From Candidatus Hermodarchaeota archaeon (lineage in GTDB: Archaea > Asgardarchaeota > Heimdallarchaeia > Hodarchaeales > Hodarchaeaceae): DNA of 32,000 bases. The notes beneath the pieces were generated by a model. The model was not told the origin of the DNA. It saw only the letters and a list, made by a program, of their open reading frames with translations, and did not search any database. The translations under genes were made by a program, and so were the position numbers. Below are positions 9,745 through 30,658 of this stretch, piece after piece (positions within the stretch are counted from its first letter, which is position 1; each line of letters starts with the position of its first letter). The stretch is from the NCBI GenBank assembly GCA_048886185.1, contig JBHLKY010000006.1:120001-152000 (forward strand), in the 5' to 3' direction.

Positions 9745-11196
9745 TCAACTAGCATGAAAATTAGCAACCTTCAAGATACTATTAACTGAACCATCATTAA
9801 ATTTCTTTACTAAGAGGCCTTGAATCTTGTCATTAACCGCGTATTCAGGCTCACCATTATCTAAAAACTGTTTCACTAAACTTAGGGATGCCATTAAATC
9901 ATTACGAGCATTTTTTTCAAAACCAGCAGCACAAATTGCCACACCTCGCAATTGAGAGTTATTAGGGCCAGTTTGGGATGCAAAGACACATCTTTTATCT
10001 CCTGCAGTTAAATGATCTGGTGTATGACCAATTAAATCAAAACTCATTGATTGTATTGCAGAAAAAAGCCCTGTGTAGAGACATACTTCCTGTCCTGCTG
10101 GACGGTGACTTGCGAAGAGGGGAAGACCCCCGTCATCGAAAATATAAATCTCTGAATTAGAAAAAATCTGATTCAATACTCTAAATCTCTCATCTTCCTC
10201 TGATGTTTCAGAAAACACAGTATTTGTTTTTTTAGAATTTTGAGAGGGACCAGCTTCACGGGAGGCAAGTGTTGGTACTACAGAAGTTAAAAAATCTGTT
10301 GACGCTGAATAGGGTATGACACTTTCTATTGGTTGATAATCTGTCAGAATAAAAACGATATTGTACCCAGACACGCGAGAATCAGTCACGTTTGAGAAAA
10401 ATATTTCAAATTCTTTACCAAAGGTTTTTGTAATCAATTCGGAAACATCATTCATCGTTTTGAGACTAAGGGGCTTTTTTGAGGTTATGGATAAAAATAC
10501 AACTTGGAGGTTTTCGAGCTTTTCGGGCATTGTAGTAACTAACTTTTCACCAACTTGATCAATAGAGCCCCCAATTGCACTATTCAAGTCCTTGGAAGAA
10601 GAAATCCCATAAACCATGCTTTGAGAATCGCCAAAAATTCGAATTAAGTTTGAGAATGAAATTCCAAATTCAGAGGATGGGGCGAGGCTTGATATTATAC
10701 TTTCAAAAAAGATTAAGAAATCCCAACGACCCTTATTATTAGAACAATCAAAATGAAAATAACATTCACCAAATAATTCTCTTTGATCATTTGATAATCC
10801 CTTCCCAGTATCAATAAACAAAGGAATGGAGCCAGAAAACTCGATGGATGCTAATATAGCACCCATAATTTTGAAAATTCCCTCTTCTGAAGAATTAAAT
10901 ATAAATAGTAGAAAGAACGAGTTAAGAAGACTATATATTTTTGGAATCATTGTTTCGGAGTTAAAAATGACTACTTGATCACACATATCATTTTTTACGG
11001 TAGTACTAGTAGTTAATAACAGTTGAGGAAGACGAGCTTCATTTTTTAATGCTAAATACTCATTGATAATTTCTAATTCAGTTGTTAAATCTTCTCCAAT
11101 ACAAACTATTTTTCCACGAGGTCGAAAATATTCCAAGATTGAATTTTTTTCAGATTGGGAGCTCAATGCTGATTTCTCTTTCGTTTTATGGGTCAA
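9745..11196 (-). CDS. Degenerate FtsZ/tubulin-like protein fused to a C-terminal longin-like domain
   Basis: aa ~27-287 follow the FtsZ secondary-structure order, and the FtsZ C-terminal domain is clear (VFLSITSKKPLSLKTMNDVSELITKTFGKEFEIFFSNVTDSRVSGYNIVFILTD). The GGGTG and NxDFAD motifs are lost. aa 350-483 (IYIFDDGGLPLF...YTGLFSAIQSMSFDLIG...GDKRCVF) are longin/profilin-like. Confidence 0.7.
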   Translation of the reverse strand: MTHKTKEKSALSSQSEKNSILEYFRPRGKIVCIGEDLTTELEIINEYLALKNEARLPQLLLTTSTTVKNDMCDQVVIFNSETMIPKIYSLLNSFFLLFIFNSSEEGIFKIMGAILASIEFSGSIPLFIDTGKGLSNDQRELFGECYFHFDCSNNKGRWDFLIFFESIISSLAPSSEFGISFSNLIRIFGDSQSMVYGISSSKDLNSAIGGSIDQVGEKLVTTMPEKLENLQVVFLSITSKKPLSLKTMNDVSELITKTFGKEFEIFFSNVTDSRVSGYNIVFILTDYQPIESVIPYSASTDFLTSVVPTLASREAGPSQNSKKTNTVFSETSEEDERFRVLNQIFSNSEIYIFDDGGLPLFASHRPAGQEVCLYTGLFSAIQSMSFDLIGHTPDHLTAGDKRCVFASQTGPNNSQLRGVAICAAGFEKNARNDLMASLSLVKQFLDNGEPEYAVNDKIQGLLVKKFNDGSVNSILKVANFHAS

Positions 11197-23239: not shown

Positions 23240-23713
23240 TTAAAAATTTTCCAGTTCTTTTAATGCTGCCATAATTGATTGAGATTCTGGTTTCTTTATC
23301 TTAACAGCAGAGGGTTCTGAGATTTTATCCATGAGCGCGGCCAAAGACTCAGACGATTCTTTCATCCGTACACGAATTAGTCCTAGCTGGGCATCAGATT
23401 CGGCCACGACAACGAGAACCCCTCGTTCACCACTTTGTGCAGTAAGAATCTTCCCATCACTAAATTCAGCAAGCATTATTCCTAGCTCCCCTAATGTAAG
23501 AGCACTCCCTTGTTCCGCGGCACCACAAAATACAGCAGAGGCTATTGCTCCAATGCTTTCAAGATCAAAGGCTCCCATAGTTTCTGATACAAGGAGTCTA
23601 GATGCTCGTGCTATTGTCAACCCAGTTCTATCACCCAAGAGAGTGACTTTAATAGAAGTATCGCTTTTTAATAACCTTGTAAGCTCCCTGTGTATTTCGT
23701 CTCTTTGCACCAT
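23240..23713 (-). CDS. Roadblock/LC7 (MglB-like) protein
   Basis: LLGDRTGLTIA...IGAIASAVFCGAAEQGSALTLGELGIMLAEFSDGKIL...LGLIRVRMK. Confidence 0.88.
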   Translation of the reverse strand: MVQRDEIHRELTRLLKSDTSIKVTLLGDRTGLTIARASRLLVSETMGAFDLESIGAIASAVFCGAAEQGSALTLGELGIMLAEFSDGKILTAQSGERGVLVVVAESDAQLGLIRVRMKESSESLAALMDKISEPSAVKIKKPESQSIMAALKELENF

Positions 23714-23841
23714 TCAGTTTTCACCTAACCTTCTATTCACACTTCCACTGATATCACTTTTTAACATTATGTCTTTTAATTCTTTTTCTAATGTTCATTC
23801 GATTGTCAATCCATTTATGGTTTAAGATATTTATACTGCTT

Positions 23842-24561
23842 TTAAAGAATAACAATTACTATAACTAAAGCAATCACTGATCCTGCTAACAAGGCTAACA
23901 AAGTTCTGTTTTGTGTTAACTTTCGTGATATTTTCCCCAATGTAGATTGAACTTTTTGTAGTTTTGAGTCGACTTCAGTGATTTTCTCATCTATCTTATC
24001 TATCTTGACTCCCTGTTCATCAAGTCTTTTAGTTAATGTTGTCAAATTCTGAGATATTTGATTCAACTGGGCGTTCATTTGATCCATTGATGTTAAAAAA
24101 GAATTCTCTAAAATTTGAAGGCGTTCTTCCAATGTCCCAACATTTTGAGATGAAATCGCTTCACCAGGGTAAGCTAACTCATAAATACGATTTCCCATTT
24201 CATCACTTGCAGGTGGTGCAGCTTGCAGATCCATGGATTCTATAGATTCACCTATACTAGCTAATGTTCCCCGTAAAAATTGCATTTTACGTTTTGTCTC
24301 TTTTATTTCTGTTACTTTCTCGTTTTGTTTACGAACGTGGCTTGGTTGAAGAAATGTGGGCATTGATGCTAAAACTTTGGCCGATAATGATCGTTTCTTC
24401 ATAACTTGCTCTGAATAGCCCCCAGAAATATCATCCGCCATTTCTTCCATTGATTCTAGAACTGACTCCAAATCATGGATGAATCCAACAATGAGTTCCT
24501 TTTCACTTGGTTCTTCAGTCTTTTTAAACCATTTTCCTAGTTTTTTTGTTATAACAGACAC
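23842..24561 (-). CDS. Tail-anchored Q-SNARE-like protein
   Basis: Hydrophobic residues at all layers -7..+8 around Gln183 (RLDEQGVKIDKI), followed directly by a C-terminal TM helix with no luminal tail. Helical N-terminal region. GTG start with GGAGA upstream. Confidence 0.75.
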   Translation of the reverse strand: MSVITKKLGKWFKKTEEPSEKELIVGFIHDLESVLESMEEMADDISGGYSEQVMKKRSLSAKVLASMPTFLQPSHVRKQNEKVTEIKETKRKMQFLRGTLASIGESIESMDLQAAPPASDEMGNRIYELAYPGEAISSQNVGTLEERLQILENSFLTSMDQMNAQLNQISQNLTTLTKRLDEQGVKIDKIDEKITEVDSKLQKVQSTLGKISRKLTQNRTLLALLAGSVIALVIVIVIL

Positions 24562-24881: not shown

Positions 24882-26204
24882 GTGCAAGATGCAGATAGAG
24901 CTTTAATACTTTCAAATGCGAGTGAAATTGTTACAATTAGAACTTACAATTCAGGCTCATACTTACGAATGAGCGACCAAGAAATAATTCAAATCAAGAA
25001 TGGCTCCTTAATCATCCAAAATGGAATCATTACTGACATTCTTGATTATCCTGTTTCCATGTCCAATAGTCCTATTTCAGAACCCCATATTTTAGATGTG
25101 ACCAATAAAACACTAATTCCTGGTTTAGTTGATTCCCATACACATCTTTCTTTCACTGGAGACAGAGAAGATGAGTTAGATATGAAATTACAAGGAAAAA
25201 CTTATCTTGAAATTCTAAAGCAGGGAGGAGGGATTATAAAAACAGTTAAAGCTACTAGAAGCGCCAATCTAGAGGAATTAATTGAGAGAGGAAAAGAAGA
25301 TGCTAATATTATGTTGAAACATGGAACTACAACAATCGAGGCAAAAAGTGGTTATGGACTTGATGTTGAAAACGAGATAAAGCAATTGAAAGCATTGAAA
25401 GAATTAAATCAAACCTGCTACAGTTCAATTGTTTCAACATACTTAGGTGCTCATGCTATTCCACCAGAATATTCTGATCAAAAAAGAAAATATATTGATC
25501 TAATGATTCAGGAAGCTATTCCTAGAATCTCAGAAAGTAACTTAGCTACCTTTATTGATGTGTTTTGTGAAGAAGGGGTTTTCTCAATTGATGAGAGTCG
25601 TGAGATCCTTTTAGCAGGAAAAAATGCAGGCTTACAACCAAAAATTCATGCTGATGAAATTGTACGAACAGGGGGAGCTCAACTTGCTGCAGAAGTAGGA
25701 GCTATTTCTGCAGATCATTTATTGATGACTGATGATGATGGTTTGGAATCCCTCGCTGAAACAGGAGTTATTCCTGTGTTATTACCTGGAACACCATTCT
25801 CCCTCATGAAAAATGAATTCCCATCTGCTCGGAATATGATTGATACATTTGATCTCCCTGTAGCTCTTGCAACAGACCTTAATCCCAACTGCTATTGCCA
25901 CTCTATGCTAAATATTATCACATTAGCGTGTTTCAAACTATATATGACACCAATAGAAGCTTTACTTGCTGCAACTAATAACTCTGCTGCAGCTATTGGC
26001 CTCCAGCAGAAAATTGGAAGTTTAGAGGTGGGAAAACAAGCTGATTTAGTTATTCTTAATGCTCCTAATTGTAAACATATTCCATATAAGTTTGGTTCTT
26101 CTAGTTTAATAGGAGCGGTTATAAAATCTGGTAAAATAGTTGCAGCAGATAATCCAGCACTTATTTCAATGAATAAAGATTTAAAACTTCCTATTTCGGA
26201 TTAA
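24882..26204 (+). CDS. hutI: Imidazolonepropionase
   Basis: PGLVDSHTH, GTTTIEAKSGYGL, YLGAHA, DVFCEEG, KIHADE, SADHL, ATDLNP. Confidence 0.95.
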   Translation: MQDADRALILSNASEIVTIRTYNSGSYLRMSDQEIIQIKNGSLIIQNGIITDILDYPVSMSNSPISEPHILDVTNKTLIPGLVDSHTHLSFTGDREDELDMKLQGKTYLEILKQGGGIIKTVKATRSANLEELIERGKEDANIMLKHGTTTIEAKSGYGLDVENEIKQLKALKELNQTCYSSIVSTYLGAHAIPPEYSDQKRKYIDLMIQEAIPRISESNLATFIDVFCEEGVFSIDESREILLAGKNAGLQPKIHADEIVRTGGAQLAAEVGAISADHLLMTDDDGLESLAETGVIPVLLPGTPFSLMKNEFPSARNMIDTFDLPVALATDLNPNCYCHSMLNIITLACFKLYMTPIEALLAATNNSAAAIGLQQKIGSLEVGKQADLVILNAPNCKHIPYKFGSSSLIGAVIKSGKIVAADNPALISMNKDLKLPISD

Positions 26205-27680
26205 TTCAACGCATTGACTAATATCGGGTGATAATTCGCGATCATCAGTGAGTACAGGAACTCTCTCTCGAATAGTATTATATTTTTTTAAGGTGAAAGG
26301 AGCTAGTTGAGGCTGAATTCCAGCTAGATCTATAGCTTGTGAAACACACAATAGTTCAATAGCAAGGATATATTGGACATGTTCAATAATTTTTCTAACC
26401 TGTCTTGCAGCGGTGGTTCCCATACTTACATGATCTTCTTGATTGGCAGATACAGGGATTGAATCAACTGATGCGGGAAATGCCAATTGTTTGTTTTCAG
26501 AGACCAATGAAGCTGCAGTATATTGAGCTATCATGAAACCTGAATTTATTCCACTTTTTAATGAAAGAAATGCTGGTAATTTGCTAAGAGTGGGATTTAA
26601 AAGATGCTCTATCCGCCGTTCGGAAATACTTCCGAGTTCTGCAATAGCAACACCTAAGAAGTCCATGGATAGAGCAATAGGCTGTCCATGAAAATTTCCT
26701 CCACTTAGAATCTTGTCAGGAGTAAATATGAGAGGATTATCTGTTGATGAGTTCATTTCAGTTTCAACAATGCCTTTAACAAAATTTATTGTGTCCAATG
26801 TGGCCCCGTGTACTATAGGCGCACAACGCAGAGAATAACAATCTTGATGTGCAATATTTTGACGAGTTCGTTTACTACCTCTTAGAAATCCAAGAATCGA
26901 TCGAGCAGTTTCAATTTGTCCTTTATGAGGACGTGCCTGATGGATACTTGGATTCAAAGCATCAATATTTGCTTGATGAACCTCCATACTCATGCTTGTT
27001 GCAATGTTTGCTACCTCCACGAGATACTCAGCATCTGCAACTGCTAATGCAGCAATTGAAGTCATCACCTGAGTCCCATTGAGAAGAGCAAGTCCTTCTT
27101 TTGCTATTAATTTTATAGGTGTTAGTCCAATTTTTTCTAATGCTTGAAGCCCTGATATTTTCTTTTCTCCTTGATATGCACTACCCTTACCAATTAGGAC
27201 CAAAGCTAAATGTGCCAACGGAGCAAGATCTCCACTTGCGCCTAGGCTCCCTTGAGAAGGTACAGCAGGTGTAACATTTTTATTCAGAAGATTCATTAAA
27301 AGAGAAACCACTTTCAGCCGAATACCCGAGTGTCCTCGTGCAAATTTATTAATTTGTAGTATAATCATGCCTCTTACAATTTCTTGAGAGAAATCTGGAC
27401 CTACTCCAGCAGCATGGCTATGCACCAAATTATATTGAAGTTTTTCAGCTTCTTGAGGTGAAACAGTTTTATCTTGAAGATATCCAAATCCTGTTGTAAC
27501 ACCATATACTCTTCGTTTTTCTTTCAGTATGTCTGCTACAATTTCAGCAGCTTGATTGATCCTTTCCTTGGCCTCATTAGACAGAGTAATTGTCCTGTTC
27601 TCACGGGCAACAGCTACCATGTCTGAAATAGAAAGATTATTTCCATTCAACTCTATAACTGGTTTAATCATTGTTATCAC
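26181..27680 (-). CDS. hutH: Histidine ammonia-lyase
   Basis: YGVTTGFG, MIO-forming GASGDLAPL, KEGLALLNGT, GGNFHGQP, NQEDHVSMG. Confidence 0.96.
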   Translation of the reverse strand: MITMIKPVIELNGNNLSISDMVAVARENRTITLSNEAKERINQAAEIVADILKEKRRVYGVTTGFGYLQDKTVSPQEAEKLQYNLVHSHAAGVGPDFSQEIVRGMIILQINKFARGHSGIRLKVVSLLMNLLNKNVTPAVPSQGSLGASGDLAPLAHLALVLIGKGSAYQGEKKISGLQALEKIGLTPIKLIAKEGLALLNGTQVMTSIAALAVADAEYLVEVANIATSMSMEVHQANIDALNPSIHQARPHKGQIETARSILGFLRGSKRTRQNIAHQDCYSLRCAPIVHGATLDTINFVKGIVETEMNSSTDNPLIFTPDKILSGGNFHGQPIALSMDFLGVAIAELGSISERRIEHLLNPTLSKLPAFLSLKSGINSGFMIAQYTAASLVSENKQLAFPASVDSIPVSANQEDHVSMGTTAARQVRKIIEHVQYILAIELLCVSQAIDLAGIQPQLAPFTLKKYNTIRERVPVLTDDRELSPDISQCVELIRNRKF

Positions 27681-27896
27681 AAAGTAGAAATATGTAATAG
27701 TTATGGGAATCTTATTTTATCTTTTTCTAAGGCACTATTGTTTCTATATCAGAAACTATCTAACAAAAATGCAATTTAATGCTAAGAAACATTTTTTTAA
27801 GTGATGAAATGTATCTTTCCATGTTTACACTTATTGCTTTATTCTTTGAAAATGTTAAAAGCTAGATTGAATTTGGAGTCTATTAATTCATTGAAA

Positions 27897-29783
27897 CTAT
27901 AGTATGTCGATAGTGATTTGTTTCATTGGTGGAAAGAGTTCTATATTTGTACGCTTCTTAACTAGTTGAATAAGTTCTAGATACAAGTCTTCGTAATTCA
28001 TTTCTGTTTTATTGGTTTTTCCTGGTACAATAATCTTGTTATCGTTAGCAATCTGGAGTGATTTGGTGTAACCTGCAGCAGAGTGTCTTAAAATAGCTGA
28101 CATTGGATCCCAGGTTAATACTCGAAAGAGTATTTCTTGGGACACAGGAGTTCCATCAGCAACACACACCTGACCTGCATGAAGTGAATATCCCACGCCA
28201 ACACCACCCCCACCATGATAACTAGTCCAAGTTGCTCCGCAAAGAGAATTTCCTAATAAATTCAGCACAGGATAATCACCAATTGCATCAGAACCATCTT
28301 TCATTCCTTCTGTTTCTCTGTAAGGACTAGCTACTGAACCTCCATCAAGGTGATCACGGCCGATTATTACAGGCGCTTTAATTATACTATCAAAATAAAG
28401 CTTGTTTAGAAGCATCCCAAAAGCAGCCCTTCCTTTGTATCCAGCCCAGAAAACACGTGCGGGTAAACCCCCCTCAAAGGGGATATATTTAGATGCCAAA
28501 TCTATCCAATTTATTAACATTGGATCGTCAGAGAACAGCATTTTAGCATATTTATCCGTAATACGTATATCTTCTGGGTCGTTTGAGAGTGCTGCCCAAC
28601 GAAATGGTCCTTTTCCCTCACAAAATAGCGGCCGAATATAATTAGGTACAAAACCAGAGAAGCTAAACGCTTTTGAAAGCCCTGCATTGTACGCTTGAGC
28701 TCGAATATTATTTCCATAATCAAAAGTTTCCGCACCTCTTTCTTGCAAAGTAATCATTGCTTTTACATGCCGTTTTACAGTCTTAAAAGCAAGACTTTTG
28801 TACTTTTGAGGATCAGTTTTTCTGAGCGTTAATGCTTCTGAAAATGTCATTTCAGCTGGAATATAACCGTTCAACATATCATGAGCTGAAGTCTGATCTG
28901 TTAATATATGAGGAGTGATTTCATGCGTGATTAAGTACTCTAAGAGATCAACAGCATTACACAAAATACCGATTGATAATAGTTCTCCTTTTTCAACAGA
29001 TTGTCGTGCTATCTGCACGCCTTCTGAAATTGAATTAATTTTCACATCTAAATAAGGAGTTCCCTTATCTCTGCCTTGGTGGAAGATTCGGTCAAGGTTA
29101 CTCGGATCAATTTCTGCAACTAGAGCGGTTTTATTTGCCATTTTGATAGCTAACGGTTGAGCTCCGCCCATTAACCCTAAACCAGCTGTTACAACTAGAT
29201 TTTGCTCAAAAGGTTTCAATAGAGAAAAGGATTTTTTACTTTCAGCTGATTTAATTGCTGCAACGACTGTTTCATAAGTTCCTTGAATTATTCCTTGAAG
29301 ACCAATAAAAATCCAGCTACCTGCAGTCATTTGACCATACACAGTAAGTCCTGCATCAACCATCTCCTGGAAAGATTGAACCCAATTTGGTACAATCACG
29401 GAGTTAGTGATAACACAACGAGGAGCTAGAGGATGGGTTATTGTTTTACCGTAAGGAACCCCTGATTGCATGAATAAGGTTTCATTGGGTTGTAAAGTTT
29501 TAAGAAGTTCAATAGTGTCGTAAAAAGCTTTCCAGTTTCGCATAGCTTTTCCGCTACCACCATATATGAAAAATTTTTCCCAGTTCTTTCCATTATGGAG
29601 GTTAGATATAATAGCTCGAATAATTCCCTCAGTTGACCATCCTGCGATAGTTGTGGGAGATAAGGCATCCTCCCCACGAGGAAGTGGGGGAATTTCCTCT
29701 GGTTTAAGATCTAAACGCAGAAGTTCTTCTTCAGGTTTCTTATAAATTCCTTCTAGAATTTCATTTAAACGGGATTTCTTCAT
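27897..29783 (-). CDS. hutU: Urocanate hydratase
   Basis: YGGSGKAMRNW, YGQMTAGSW..IG.QGI.QGTYET, TDQTSAHD, FDYGNNIR, GRDHLD.GSVASPYRETE. Confidence 0.95.
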   Translation of the reverse strand: MKKSRLNEILEGIYKKPEEELLRLDLKPEEIPPLPRGEDALSPTTIAGWSTEGIIRAIISNLHNGKNWEKFFIYGGSGKAMRNWKAFYDTIELLKTLQPNETLFMQSGVPYGKTITHPLAPRCVITNSVIVPNWVQSFQEMVDAGLTVYGQMTAGSWIFIGLQGIIQGTYETVVAAIKSAESKKSFSLLKPFEQNLVVTAGLGLMGGAQPLAIKMANKTALVAEIDPSNLDRIFHQGRDKGTPYLDVKINSISEGVQIARQSVEKGELLSIGILCNAVDLLEYLITHEITPHILTDQTSAHDMLNGYIPAEMTFSEALTLRKTDPQKYKSLAFKTVKRHVKAMITLQERGAETFDYGNNIRAQAYNAGLSKAFSFSGFVPNYIRPLFCEGKGPFRWAALSNDPEDIRITDKYAKMLFSDDPMLINWIDLASKYIPFEGGLPARVFWAGYKGRAAFGMLLNKLYFDSIIKAPVIIGRDHLDGGSVASPYRETEGMKDGSDAIGDYPVLNLLGNSLCGATWTSYHGGGGVGVGYSLHAGQVCVADGTPVSQEILFRVLTWDPMSAILRHSAAGYTKSLQIANDNKIIVPGKTNKTEMNYEDLYLELIQLVKKRTNIELFPPMKQITIDIL

Positions 29784-29809
29784 TGATCATCCTCCACTGA
29801 TTTATTGGA

Positions 29810-29827
29810 AAGATGAGTACGCATCTT
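29810..29827. promoter_or_regulatory. Candidate operator palindrome upstream of hutU
   Basis: AAGATGAGTACGCATCTT is a 16/18 palindrome located between the predicted TATA box and the GGAGG RBS of hutU. Confidence 0.4.
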
Positions 29828-29832
29828 ACTTA

Positions 29833-29900
29833 AGTTTCAAGAATACAGTTCCTCGTATAAAAACTCTGGTTTTAGCATAGAATAATTCTTTCTTGAAACT
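29833..29900. repeat. Perfect 11-bp inverted repeat flanking the predicted hutU TATA box
   Basis: AGTTTCAAGAA (29833-29843) and TTCTTGAAACT (29890-29900). The 46-nt spacer contains TTTTTATA on the minus strand (29863-29856). Confidence 0.6.
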
Positions 29901-29950
29901 GAAGAAGATTTGATTACCAAATGAATAGGAATTAAAGATACTGCCCTAAA

Positions 29951-30658
29951 TTATCCTTTTCGTAGTTCAGAAATTAGGATATCACGAATGACCATTTGAA
30001 TAGGCTGAATGATACGTTGAACAGGTTGAGGCCGAAGTTTAGGATTCCACTCACCTTTACCCCAAGCCTCTTTTAAGGCAACTAATGCCTCTAAACAACT
30101 AACTTCGAAGGTACTAGCGAAGGTATCACGTAATTTATCAGAAATGCCTGCTTCTAACATTAACTTGCCAACATCCGCAGCACTGATTCGTGTATCGGCA
30201 GGTAGATCCATCTTATTAAGCATAATAGCCATCTTAACCTCACGATTATAGAGCTTTTCGCCTAATATTTGAAAAAGTTCAGTAAGACTATCTTTATTCT
30301 CCTCCCAACGGGCTTTCTCAGAATCAATAACCACAATAAGACCATGGAGCCCATTGACAACAATTTTTCGCATAGATTTAAAACGATCTTGCCCTGGCGT
30401 AGTAAAAAGATGATACTTGAATCCCTTTCCTGGGCCGGTACCCAAGCCAAATGTTGCTTGATCAAAACCAATCGTTCGTTCAGTTGCTTTATCCTCGAGT
30501 TTCAAAAACTGATAAACGCTTTCAGGGTCCTCTTTTTTCTTAATAGCATGAAATAAGCTCAATGCAGTAGTTTTTCCAGCTAATGTAGGGCCCCAAAAAA
30601 CAATCTTAATACCTTTTTGAGCCTCTTCAAAAACAAGTTCTTCTTCTTGACTCAACAA
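29951..30658 (-). CDS. Small GTPase, MglA-like
   Basis: G1 GPTLAGKTT, G2 ERTIGFD (intrinsic Arg), G3 TTPGQ lacking Asp as in MglA TVPGQ, G4 NKMD. Confidence 0.85.
   Translation of the reverse strand: MLSQEEELVFEEAQKGIKIVFWGPTLAGKTTALSLFHAIKKKEDPESVYQFLKLEDKATERTIGFDQATFGLGTGPGKGFKYHLFTTPGQDRFKSMRKIVVNGLHGLIVVIDSEKARWEENKDSLTELFQILGEKLYNREVKMAIMLNKMDLPADTRISAADVGKLMLEAGISDKLRDTFASTFEVSCLEALVALKEAWGKGEWNPKLRPQPVQRIIQPIQMVIRDILISELRKG

Follow-up and report, generated by a model that had tools for sequence, protein, structure and literature searches.

A Heimdall-Type SNARE Gene and Its Relationship to HPS1

The 32,000-nucleotide stretch of Hodarchaeales (Asgard) DNA analyzed here (herein the window) carries a complete gene for a Heimdall-type SNARE that very probably belongs to the published Heimdallarchaeial family of prototypic SNAREs, as an ortholog of HPS1. 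The encoded protein adds one more copy to a known, structurally characterized family and is no new kind of protein. The gene occupies positions 23842..24561 of the minus strand and, according to the open reading frame list and the translation, encodes 239 residues from a GTG start to a TAA stop, which confirms the complete frame proposed in the initial annotation. A GGAG can be read from the sequence ∼10 to 13 nt 5′ of the GTG; the frame stays open for 18 codons further upstream, and a start in this extension was rejected in favor of the GTG because the homologs begin at the aligned Met. A word-indexed search recovered 67 full-length homologs (58 to 89% identity), nearly all of them 239 residues long and every one (67/67) from Hodarchaeales/Heimdallarchaeota metagenome bins.

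HPS1 (PWI47941.1, from Ca. Heimdallarchaeota archaeon B3-JM-08) was named by Neveu et al. (bioRxiv 10.1101/810531; 2019/2020). Its SNARE-like region (residues 150 through 216) was expressed in that study and joins neuronal SNARE complexes, taking the R, Qb, or Qc position with the neuronal SNAREs in vitro. Bentahar et al. 2026 (bioRxiv 10.64898/2026.10.19.760048) found HPS1 to be a homotetramer by SEC-MALS, unfolding only above 90 °C, and crystallized the motif (2.4 Å resolution); in the structure, four parallel helices make up a bundle with 16 layers, and in layer 0 four Q183 side chains are arranged around water. The core geometry is SNARE-like, molecular replacement was carried out with syntaxin-6, and an F155W mutant served for detection (bioRxiv 10.64898/2026.10.19.760048). 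In the published HPS1 work, mouse NSF fails to disassemble HPS1 complexes.

The HPS1 sequence, machine-read from the 2019 supplement, is nearly identical to the homologs P0053/P0056. The window protein shares 68% identity with P0053/P0056 over all 239 residues (E about 1e-95); by region, identity is 53% in the N-terminal domain, 79% in the motif, and 96% in the transmembrane domain (TMD). F155 and Q183 fall on the same residue numbers as in HPS1, and a maximum-likelihood tree places the window protein and the HPS1-like sequence in one starred clade. The architecture of the HPS family is present as well, with an N-terminal helical extension, a central motif, and a C-terminal TMD, and is the same in a deep set of 20 diverse family members that are 26 to 68% identical to the window protein. 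Nothing argues against orthology with HPS1. The point that had been left open at the outset, whether this protein is a reported Heimdall SNARE or founds a new family, is thereby answered in favor of the former by the 68% identity to the HPS1-like sequences.

Layers of the SNARE Motif and the Zero-Layer Glutamine

The SNARE motif (residues 150 through 216; 23914..24114, minus strand) coincides with the region expressed for HPS1 and is supported by its layers, by identity to the HPS1-like sequences, and by alignment to VAMP2. Sixteen layers follow one another in alternating 3/4 spacing from M159 (layer −7) to I211 (layer +8). Counted from the translation, layers −7 to −1 consist of M159, M162, L166, I169, L173, L176, and L180; Q183 forms layer 0; and I187, I190, I194, V197, L201, V204, L208, and I211 form layers +1 to +8. 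This series matches to the residue the list read from the DNA initially (M, M, L, I, L, L, L, Q183, I, I, I, V, L, V, L, I). The zero-layer glutamine is encoded by CAG at 24013..24015 (24015-24013 in the direction of the minus strand).

In an alignment of 36 close homologs (A1), Q183 is invariant (36/36), and most of the layer residues are invariant too. The deep set has Gln at the zero layer in 18 of its 20 members and His in the other two; across the same 20 sequences, the 15 nonzero layers are 98% hydrophobic, vs. 15% at the remaining motif positions. The pattern exceeds chance, and layer hydrophobicity together with the zero-layer Gln across the deep members indicates that selection acts on the heptad register and on the one polar layer in it. 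Q183 is thus clearly conserved, which speaks against the possibility, raised in the initial annotation, that it might not be; the core reading given there, of a tail-anchored SNARE-like protein whose zero layer is a Gln, is supported by the layers, by Q183, and by the C-terminal helix. The two deep lineages with His at the zero layer are P0074 (loci L018/L035, genome G070) and P0084, in the sequence contexts EEHG and GDHG.

A phmmer alignment to VAMP2 (3hd7_A) places residues 155 through 238 of the window protein on residues 3 through 86 without a gap (84 residues), with Q183 on R56; the ungapped alignment runs from layer −7 through the TMD.

Membrane Anchor, Basic Linker, and N-Terminal Domain

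The C-terminal transmembrane helix, a hydrophobic stretch of 20 residues in the translation (residues 220 through 239; 23845..23904, minus strand), reaches the last residue of the protein and leaves no luminal tail. It is preceded by the juxtamembrane basic linker SRKLTQNR (residues 212 through 219; 23905..23928, minus strand), in which S212, K214, L215, T216, Q217, and N218 are invariant in alignment A1; the succession of linker and terminal helix had been noted earlier and is present as described. Among close homologs, the TMD and linker together (23845-23928) are the best-conserved part of the protein, with a mean identity of 91%, vs. 84% for the motif. Since both are conserved above the motif, something beyond simple anchoring appears to constrain them, and the pattern argues for specific helix-helix contacts or contacts with insertion machinery in the membrane. 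KLTQN and TLL are invariant in the linker and TMD; conservation above that of the bundle-forming motif is unusual for a mere anchor.

Conservation is lowest in the N-terminal domain (mean identity 63% among close homologs). An AF2 monomer model calculated with a 36-sequence alignment (mean pLDDT 66.5) contains an N-terminal helical domain (residues 20 through 109; 24235..24504, minus strand) with helices at residues 20 through 54, 59 through 65, and 74 through 109 (pLDDT 72 to 87). A low-confidence linker follows (residues 110 through 143; 24133..24234, minus strand; pLDDT <50 over residues 111 through 141) that carries the YELAYPGE block, with Y127, E128, P132, G133, and E134 invariant in A1. 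The motif is modeled as two helices (residues 144 through 182 and 190 through 217) with a break at Q183/G184, and the TMD comes next. Overall, the predicted monomer is a compact four-helix bundle, its N-terminal hairpin being packed onto the kinked SNARE motif.

Searching the PDB with the full-length model, Foldseek returned nothing at E ≤ 0.001, and the matches of a wide VIA-align search were all four-helix bundles of a generic kind (best Z 11.7, in the range of helical-bundle noise), with no SNARE or syntaxin among them. In one distant family member, STX6_10_61_N gives a subthreshold match (23.6; cutoff 29.4). Bentahar et al. called an N-terminal three-helix bundle "likely" (bioRxiv 10.64898/2026.10.19.760048). 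The model supports a helical N-terminal domain, and to that extent the Habc-like layout suggested in the initial annotation holds. The three-helix bundle that it envisaged does not emerge clearly: two of the predicted helices are long (20 through 54 and 74 through 109), the third (59 through 65) is short, and no syntaxin fold was matched.

Relationship to the Eukaryotic SNARE Superfamily

Sequence statistics do not suffice here to show that the protein belongs to the eukaryotic SNARE superfamily. Against the Pfam families SNARE (PF05739), V-SNARE_C (PF12352), Synaptobrevin (PF00957), and Sec20 (PF03908), the window protein scores 21.3, 20.0, 16.6, and 16.2, with cutoffs of 26.8, 27.1, 26.4, and 27, respectively. 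Its top Pfam match is DUF7310 (23.1 bits; cutoff 40), likewise below threshold, and the subthreshold SNARE-type matches are interleaved with generic coiled coils (DUF7310, DUF1664, and Baculo_PEP_C). The initial annotation had cautioned that generic coiled-coil families might score better, which is borne out insofar as DUF7310 lies marginally above Pfam SNARE (23.1 vs. 21.3 bits) with both below threshold; its further caution, that only homotrimers might form, is contradicted by the published oligomer of the ortholog HPS1, a homotetramer and not a trimer. Among 36 family members, SNARE (27/36) and V-SNARE_C (23/36) are among the commonest Pfam matches; the best member reaches 24.5 on PF05739, so that none passes the cutoff of 26.8, and one passes V-SNARE_C marginally (28.8).

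A profile of the family searched against the PDB finds VAMP2 (E = 0.077), syntaxin-6 (2nps_D; E = 0.13), syntaxin-7 (E = 0.14), and SNAP-25 (E = 0.55), with designed coiled coils and viral proteins ranked above VAMP2 and the syntaxins. The profile is unspecific, matching a Thr/Gly/Ser/Asn-rich repeat protein at E = 2e-23. A parallel to syntaxin-6/Qc sequences had been drawn for this protein; syntaxin-6 matches no better than VAMP2 or syntaxin-7, and as a classification the parallel is not supported. Nor does the profile show a preference among the types Qa, Qb, Qc, and R. In the tree of Bentahar et al. (bioRxiv 10.64898/2026.10.19.760048), the Heimdall SNAREs fall within none of the four eukaryotic types.

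These scores bear on an alternative, namely that the protein is a generic tail-anchored coiled coil, a homo-oligomeric scaffold or tether with any polar residue in its core, that resembles SNAREs by convergence and shares no ancestry with them in eukaryotes. Convergence would sit well with Pfam SNARE-type scores of the window protein that all fall below curated cutoffs amid generic coiled coils, with the rank of designed and viral proteins in an unspecific profile search, with His at the zero layer of two deep members, and with the failure to find an SM protein or partner SNARE in the window's genome. It is harder to reconcile with a register that equals that of VAMP2 without a gap up to the membrane anchor, the polar layer occupying the equivalent position among 16 layers, or with a published crystal of SNARE-like core geometry that was solved with syntaxin-6 as the replacement model. 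HPS1 also joins neuronal SNARE complexes in vitro, the family is limited to the archaeal class nearest to eukaryotes, and SNARE-type families are prominent among the Pfam matches of its members, one of them above the cutoff. We therefore regard convergence as improbable. What argues for homology with eukaryotic SNAREs is the structural and biochemical work published on HPS1 and no result computed here: the sequence scores are subthreshold, and of the comparisons made only the shared geometry with VAMP2 holds.

The Downstream Roadblock/LC7 Gene

A Roadblock/LC7 gene (157 residues; 23240..23713, minus strand; Pfam Robl_LC7 29.3 bits, cutoff 23) begins 128 nt downstream of the SNARE gene, and the order on the minus strand is SNARE, Roadblock, and then TFE-alpha. 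Roadblock lies directly 3′ of the SNARE gene in all same-genus loci with enough flanking sequence. The order recurs in one f2 genome, where the SNARE is 38% identical and the other neighbors differ, and on an LC_3-like soil contig, where the SNARE is 39% identical; the two genes are no longer adjacent in the second f2 genome (G069), and the other deep SNARE clade (families f3, f5, and f6) has no Roadblock neighbor. The adjoining gene represents a paralog type found only in f1 and f2. A second Roadblock paralog is widespread: it occurs alone in all other families, including those that lack the SNARE, and in f1 it is located elsewhere in the genome (G000:C8:22153-22509 in the window's genome). 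Within the genus the adjoining Roadblock is 87 to 98% identical, above the conservation of the SNARE, and it ends in an invariant C-terminal tail, KKPESQSIMAALKELENF.

The spacer between the two genes varies from 73 to 456 nt among orthologous loci and throughout retains a conserved BRE/TATA-like block, ATTAGAAAAAGAATTAAAAG (23772..23792, minus strand), which lies ∼60 to 80 nt 5′ of the Roadblock ATG. The block suggests that the Roadblock gene has its own promoter, and because the spacer is so variable and carries this block, the SNARE and Roadblock genes are probably transcribed separately and not as an operon. A complex prediction for the cytoplasmic part of the SNARE (residues 1 through 217) with Roadblock gave a score of 0.00, which counts neither for nor against binding.

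One interpretation of the synteny is a SNARE-Roadblock module in which Roadblock, perhaps with a small GTPase, binds or regulates the SNARE in the way that longin domains act on R-SNAREs. The same-strand order kept in same-genus loci, in an f2 genome, and on the LC_3-like contig is compatible with such a module, as are the restriction of this paralog to f1 and f2 (the widespread one being located elsewhere) and its conservation above that of the SNARE, with the invariant tail. We nonetheless consider the module unlikely, given that the variable spacer with its BRE/TATA-like block points to separate transcription, that the adjacency is lost in G069 and absent from the f3, f5, and f6 clade, and that TFE-alpha is also kept in the block, so that some of the synteny may simply have been inherited within one order. 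Less probable still is the broader proposal that SNARE and Roadblock constitute a regulatory pair, an archaeal forerunner of the logic by which eukaryotic trafficking combines a longin domain or a GTPase platform with a SNARE; the Roadblock role would fall to a conserved 346-residue protein in the other clade.

Other Genes Around the SNARE

The ∼346-residue protein adjoins the SNARE gene at 13 of 14 loci of the HPS2-like clade (f5 and f6), in three orientations (L017:3771-4811, minus strand, and 13 further loci in alignment A3). Homologs are present on other contigs of the window's genome (G000:C13:29447-30430, C20:2732-3487, and C16:105926-106435). The protein has no Pfam family and no usable protein-atlas match; its AF2 model (pLDDT 65) gave no convincing fold match, the best (Z 7.6) covering the N-terminal helical hairpin only. 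Neither the SNARE-Roadblock nor the SNARE-346-residue neighborhood is mentioned by Neveu et al. (bioRxiv 10.1101/810531) or Bentahar et al. (bioRxiv 10.64898/2026.10.19.760048), nor in an Asgard Roadblock paper.

Upstream of the SNARE gene (24882-30658) the window contains hutI (plus strand), hutH (minus), hutU (minus), and then a gene for an Arf/Ras-like small GTPase (235 residues; 29951-30658, minus strand). At orthologous loci the gene immediately upstream is instead one for a large S8 peptidase, and farther out come genes for glutamine synthetase and amidohydrolase, or else hutH. These loci have no GTPase gene within 5 to 6 kb of the SNARE gene, so the link between GTPase and SNARE is not conserved. 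Elsewhere in the window, a 483-residue frame (9745-11196, minus strand) that had been flagged earlier as an FtsZ-like/longin fusion matches no Pfam family at E ≤ 0.001.

Copy Number and Distribution

The window's genome (4.84 Mb, 96% complete) contains a single SNARE copy; searches with the family profile, Pfam SNARE (PF05739), and Pfam Synaptobrevin (PF00957) recovered this gene and no further SNARE. The search for R-type partners suggested in the initial annotation thus yielded no candidate.

In the class, the gene is present in 19/21 genomes of family f1, 2/2 of f2, 1/1 of f3, 3/3 of f5, and 11/12 of f6; it was found in 0/31 genomes of f4, which include single-contig assemblies that are 92 to 93% complete, and in 0/12 of f7. 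Among 332 Asgard genomes with a completeness of at least 80%, a further 23 families gave no credible match to the SNARE family. It therefore occurs in five families, all of one Asgard class, and the other 25 families among the 332 genomes have no credible match (a single one of 28 bits, E = 1.9e-6); this independent result agrees with the published confinement to part of Heimdallarchaeia (bioRxiv 10.64898/2026.10.19.760048). Because the gene is missing from the f4 and f7 genomes, it is not essential to heimdallarchaeial cell organization. An exhaustive profile search added ∼17 deeper lineages (26 to 39% identity). A 2,716-residue protein with 17 matched stretches (P0092; E = 2e-23) was tried as a giant multi-SNARE and rejected; it is a low-complexity repeat protein rich in Thr, Gly, Ser, and Asn, and the match is compositional.

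Tandem SNARE pairs occur in three genomes (L063:2978-4470 in G069; L073:4001-5425 in GCA_048940615.1; L072:3279-4717 in GCA_048938655.1). In the G069 and GCA_048940615.1 pairs the two genes share only about 31 to 37% identity; in the GCA_048938655.1 pair, part of the N-terminal domain is missing from one gene. All copies have Gln at layer 0. Two of the pairs group by lineage in the tree and are therefore independent duplications; the duplications listed by Bentahar et al. (bioRxiv 10.64898/2026.10.19.760048) are confined to two genomes, which bear other accessions. The tandem pair in GCA_048940615.1 (L071/L073, contig JBHLOK010000058.1) is surrounded, within about 9 kb, by four genes for Arf/Ras/Rag-like small GTPases.

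A heteromeric QabcR-type complex with partner SNAREs that went unrecognized in the window's genome would accord with the R, Qb, or Qc positions that HPS1 takes among neuronal SNAREs in vitro and with the strongly diverged tandem pairs of some heimdallarchaeial genomes, but it is highly improbable when the family profile, Pfam SNARE, and Synaptobrevin searches recover one gene only, HPS1 alone is a stable homotetramer, and the grouping of the tandem pairs elsewhere by lineage points to separate duplications.

Proposed Assembly and Function

Because the motif is 79% identical to the HPS1-like sequences, we infer that residues 150 through 216 form a parallel homotetrameric four-helix bundle. By analogy with HPS1, the motif would join with three identical copies in a very stable, left-handed assembly of parallel helices, at the center of which a ring of four Q183 side chains would surround water. 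Judging from the architecture, the C-terminal helix would insert posttranslationally into the membrane, and tail anchoring would leave the whole bundle-forming part facing the cytoplasm; the window's genome encodes a Get3/ArsA homolog (281 bits) and has four genes for Cdc48-like ATPases. Hypothetically, bundles forming between molecules on two membranes could pull these together, leading to tethering or fusion, and a Cdc48-like ATPase might then take the bundles apart.

Trans-assembly that tethers or fuses membranes is hypothetical. A homotetramer of identical tail-anchored chains offers no obvious distinction between cis and trans, which speaks against this function, as do the NSF resistance of HPS1 complexes, the conservation of the TMD and juxtamembrane linker above that of the motif, and the lack of the gene in two sister families (43 genomes).

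Significance and Comparison with Known Systems

Outside eukaryotes, Heimdall SNAREs are the only known candidates for a precursor of the machinery that fuses eukaryotic membranes, and each verified ortholog therefore adds to the comparative set. The copy in the window confirms that there is one gene per genome, that conservation of the zero-layer Gln is strict, and that the membrane anchor is unusually conserved. It also provides leads in the form of undescribed conserved neighbors, the Roadblock paralog and, in the other clade, the 346-residue protein. The independent tandem duplications of some lineages could reveal how a bundle of identical chains gives rise to a heteromeric one.

With VAMP2/synaptobrevin-2 (3HD7) and syntaxin-6 (2NPS chain D) the window protein has in common the 16-layer motif, the polar center, the short basic linker, and the TMD. 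It differs from eukaryotic SNAREs in that the sequence similarity is not significant (E 0.02 to 0.14) and no Qa, Qb, Qc, or R type can be assigned; HPS1, for its part, is an NSF-resistant 4Q homotetramer and not a 3Q:1R heterotetramer. No partner SNARE was found in the window's genome and no Sec1/Munc18 protein was detected there, although Pfam Sec1 was silent in every control genome as well, so that its lack of a match says little.

DUF7310 and FlaC_arch reach comparable or slightly higher subthreshold scores over residues 144 through 216, and several sources label homologs as "archaellum component FlaC"; unlike the window protein, those families lack a defined zero layer of polar character that keeps a constant spacing to a tail anchor, and the score of 23.1 against a cutoff of 40 falls far short of membership. 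HPS2 (OLS22354.1, Heimdallarchaeota LC_2) and OLS23218.1 (LC_3) resemble the window protein in family, architecture, zero-layer Gln, and tail anchor, but are only 26 to 39% identical to it. HPS2-like proteins form the other deep clade (100/100 support) and have a Lys-rich N-terminal extension, and the conserved gene neighbor of that clade is the ∼346-residue protein, not a Roadblock gene.

The closest likeness is to HPS1. The two proteins agree in their length of 239 residues, in the numbering of F155 and Q183, in the position of the motif (residues 150 through 216), in the three-part layout, and in belonging to a Hodarchaeales clade; the TMD of the HPS1-like P0053/P0056 differs from that of the window protein by one residue. 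What separates them is ordinary divergence between orthologs, mostly in the N-terminal domain (53% identity), and the functional residues are all the same.
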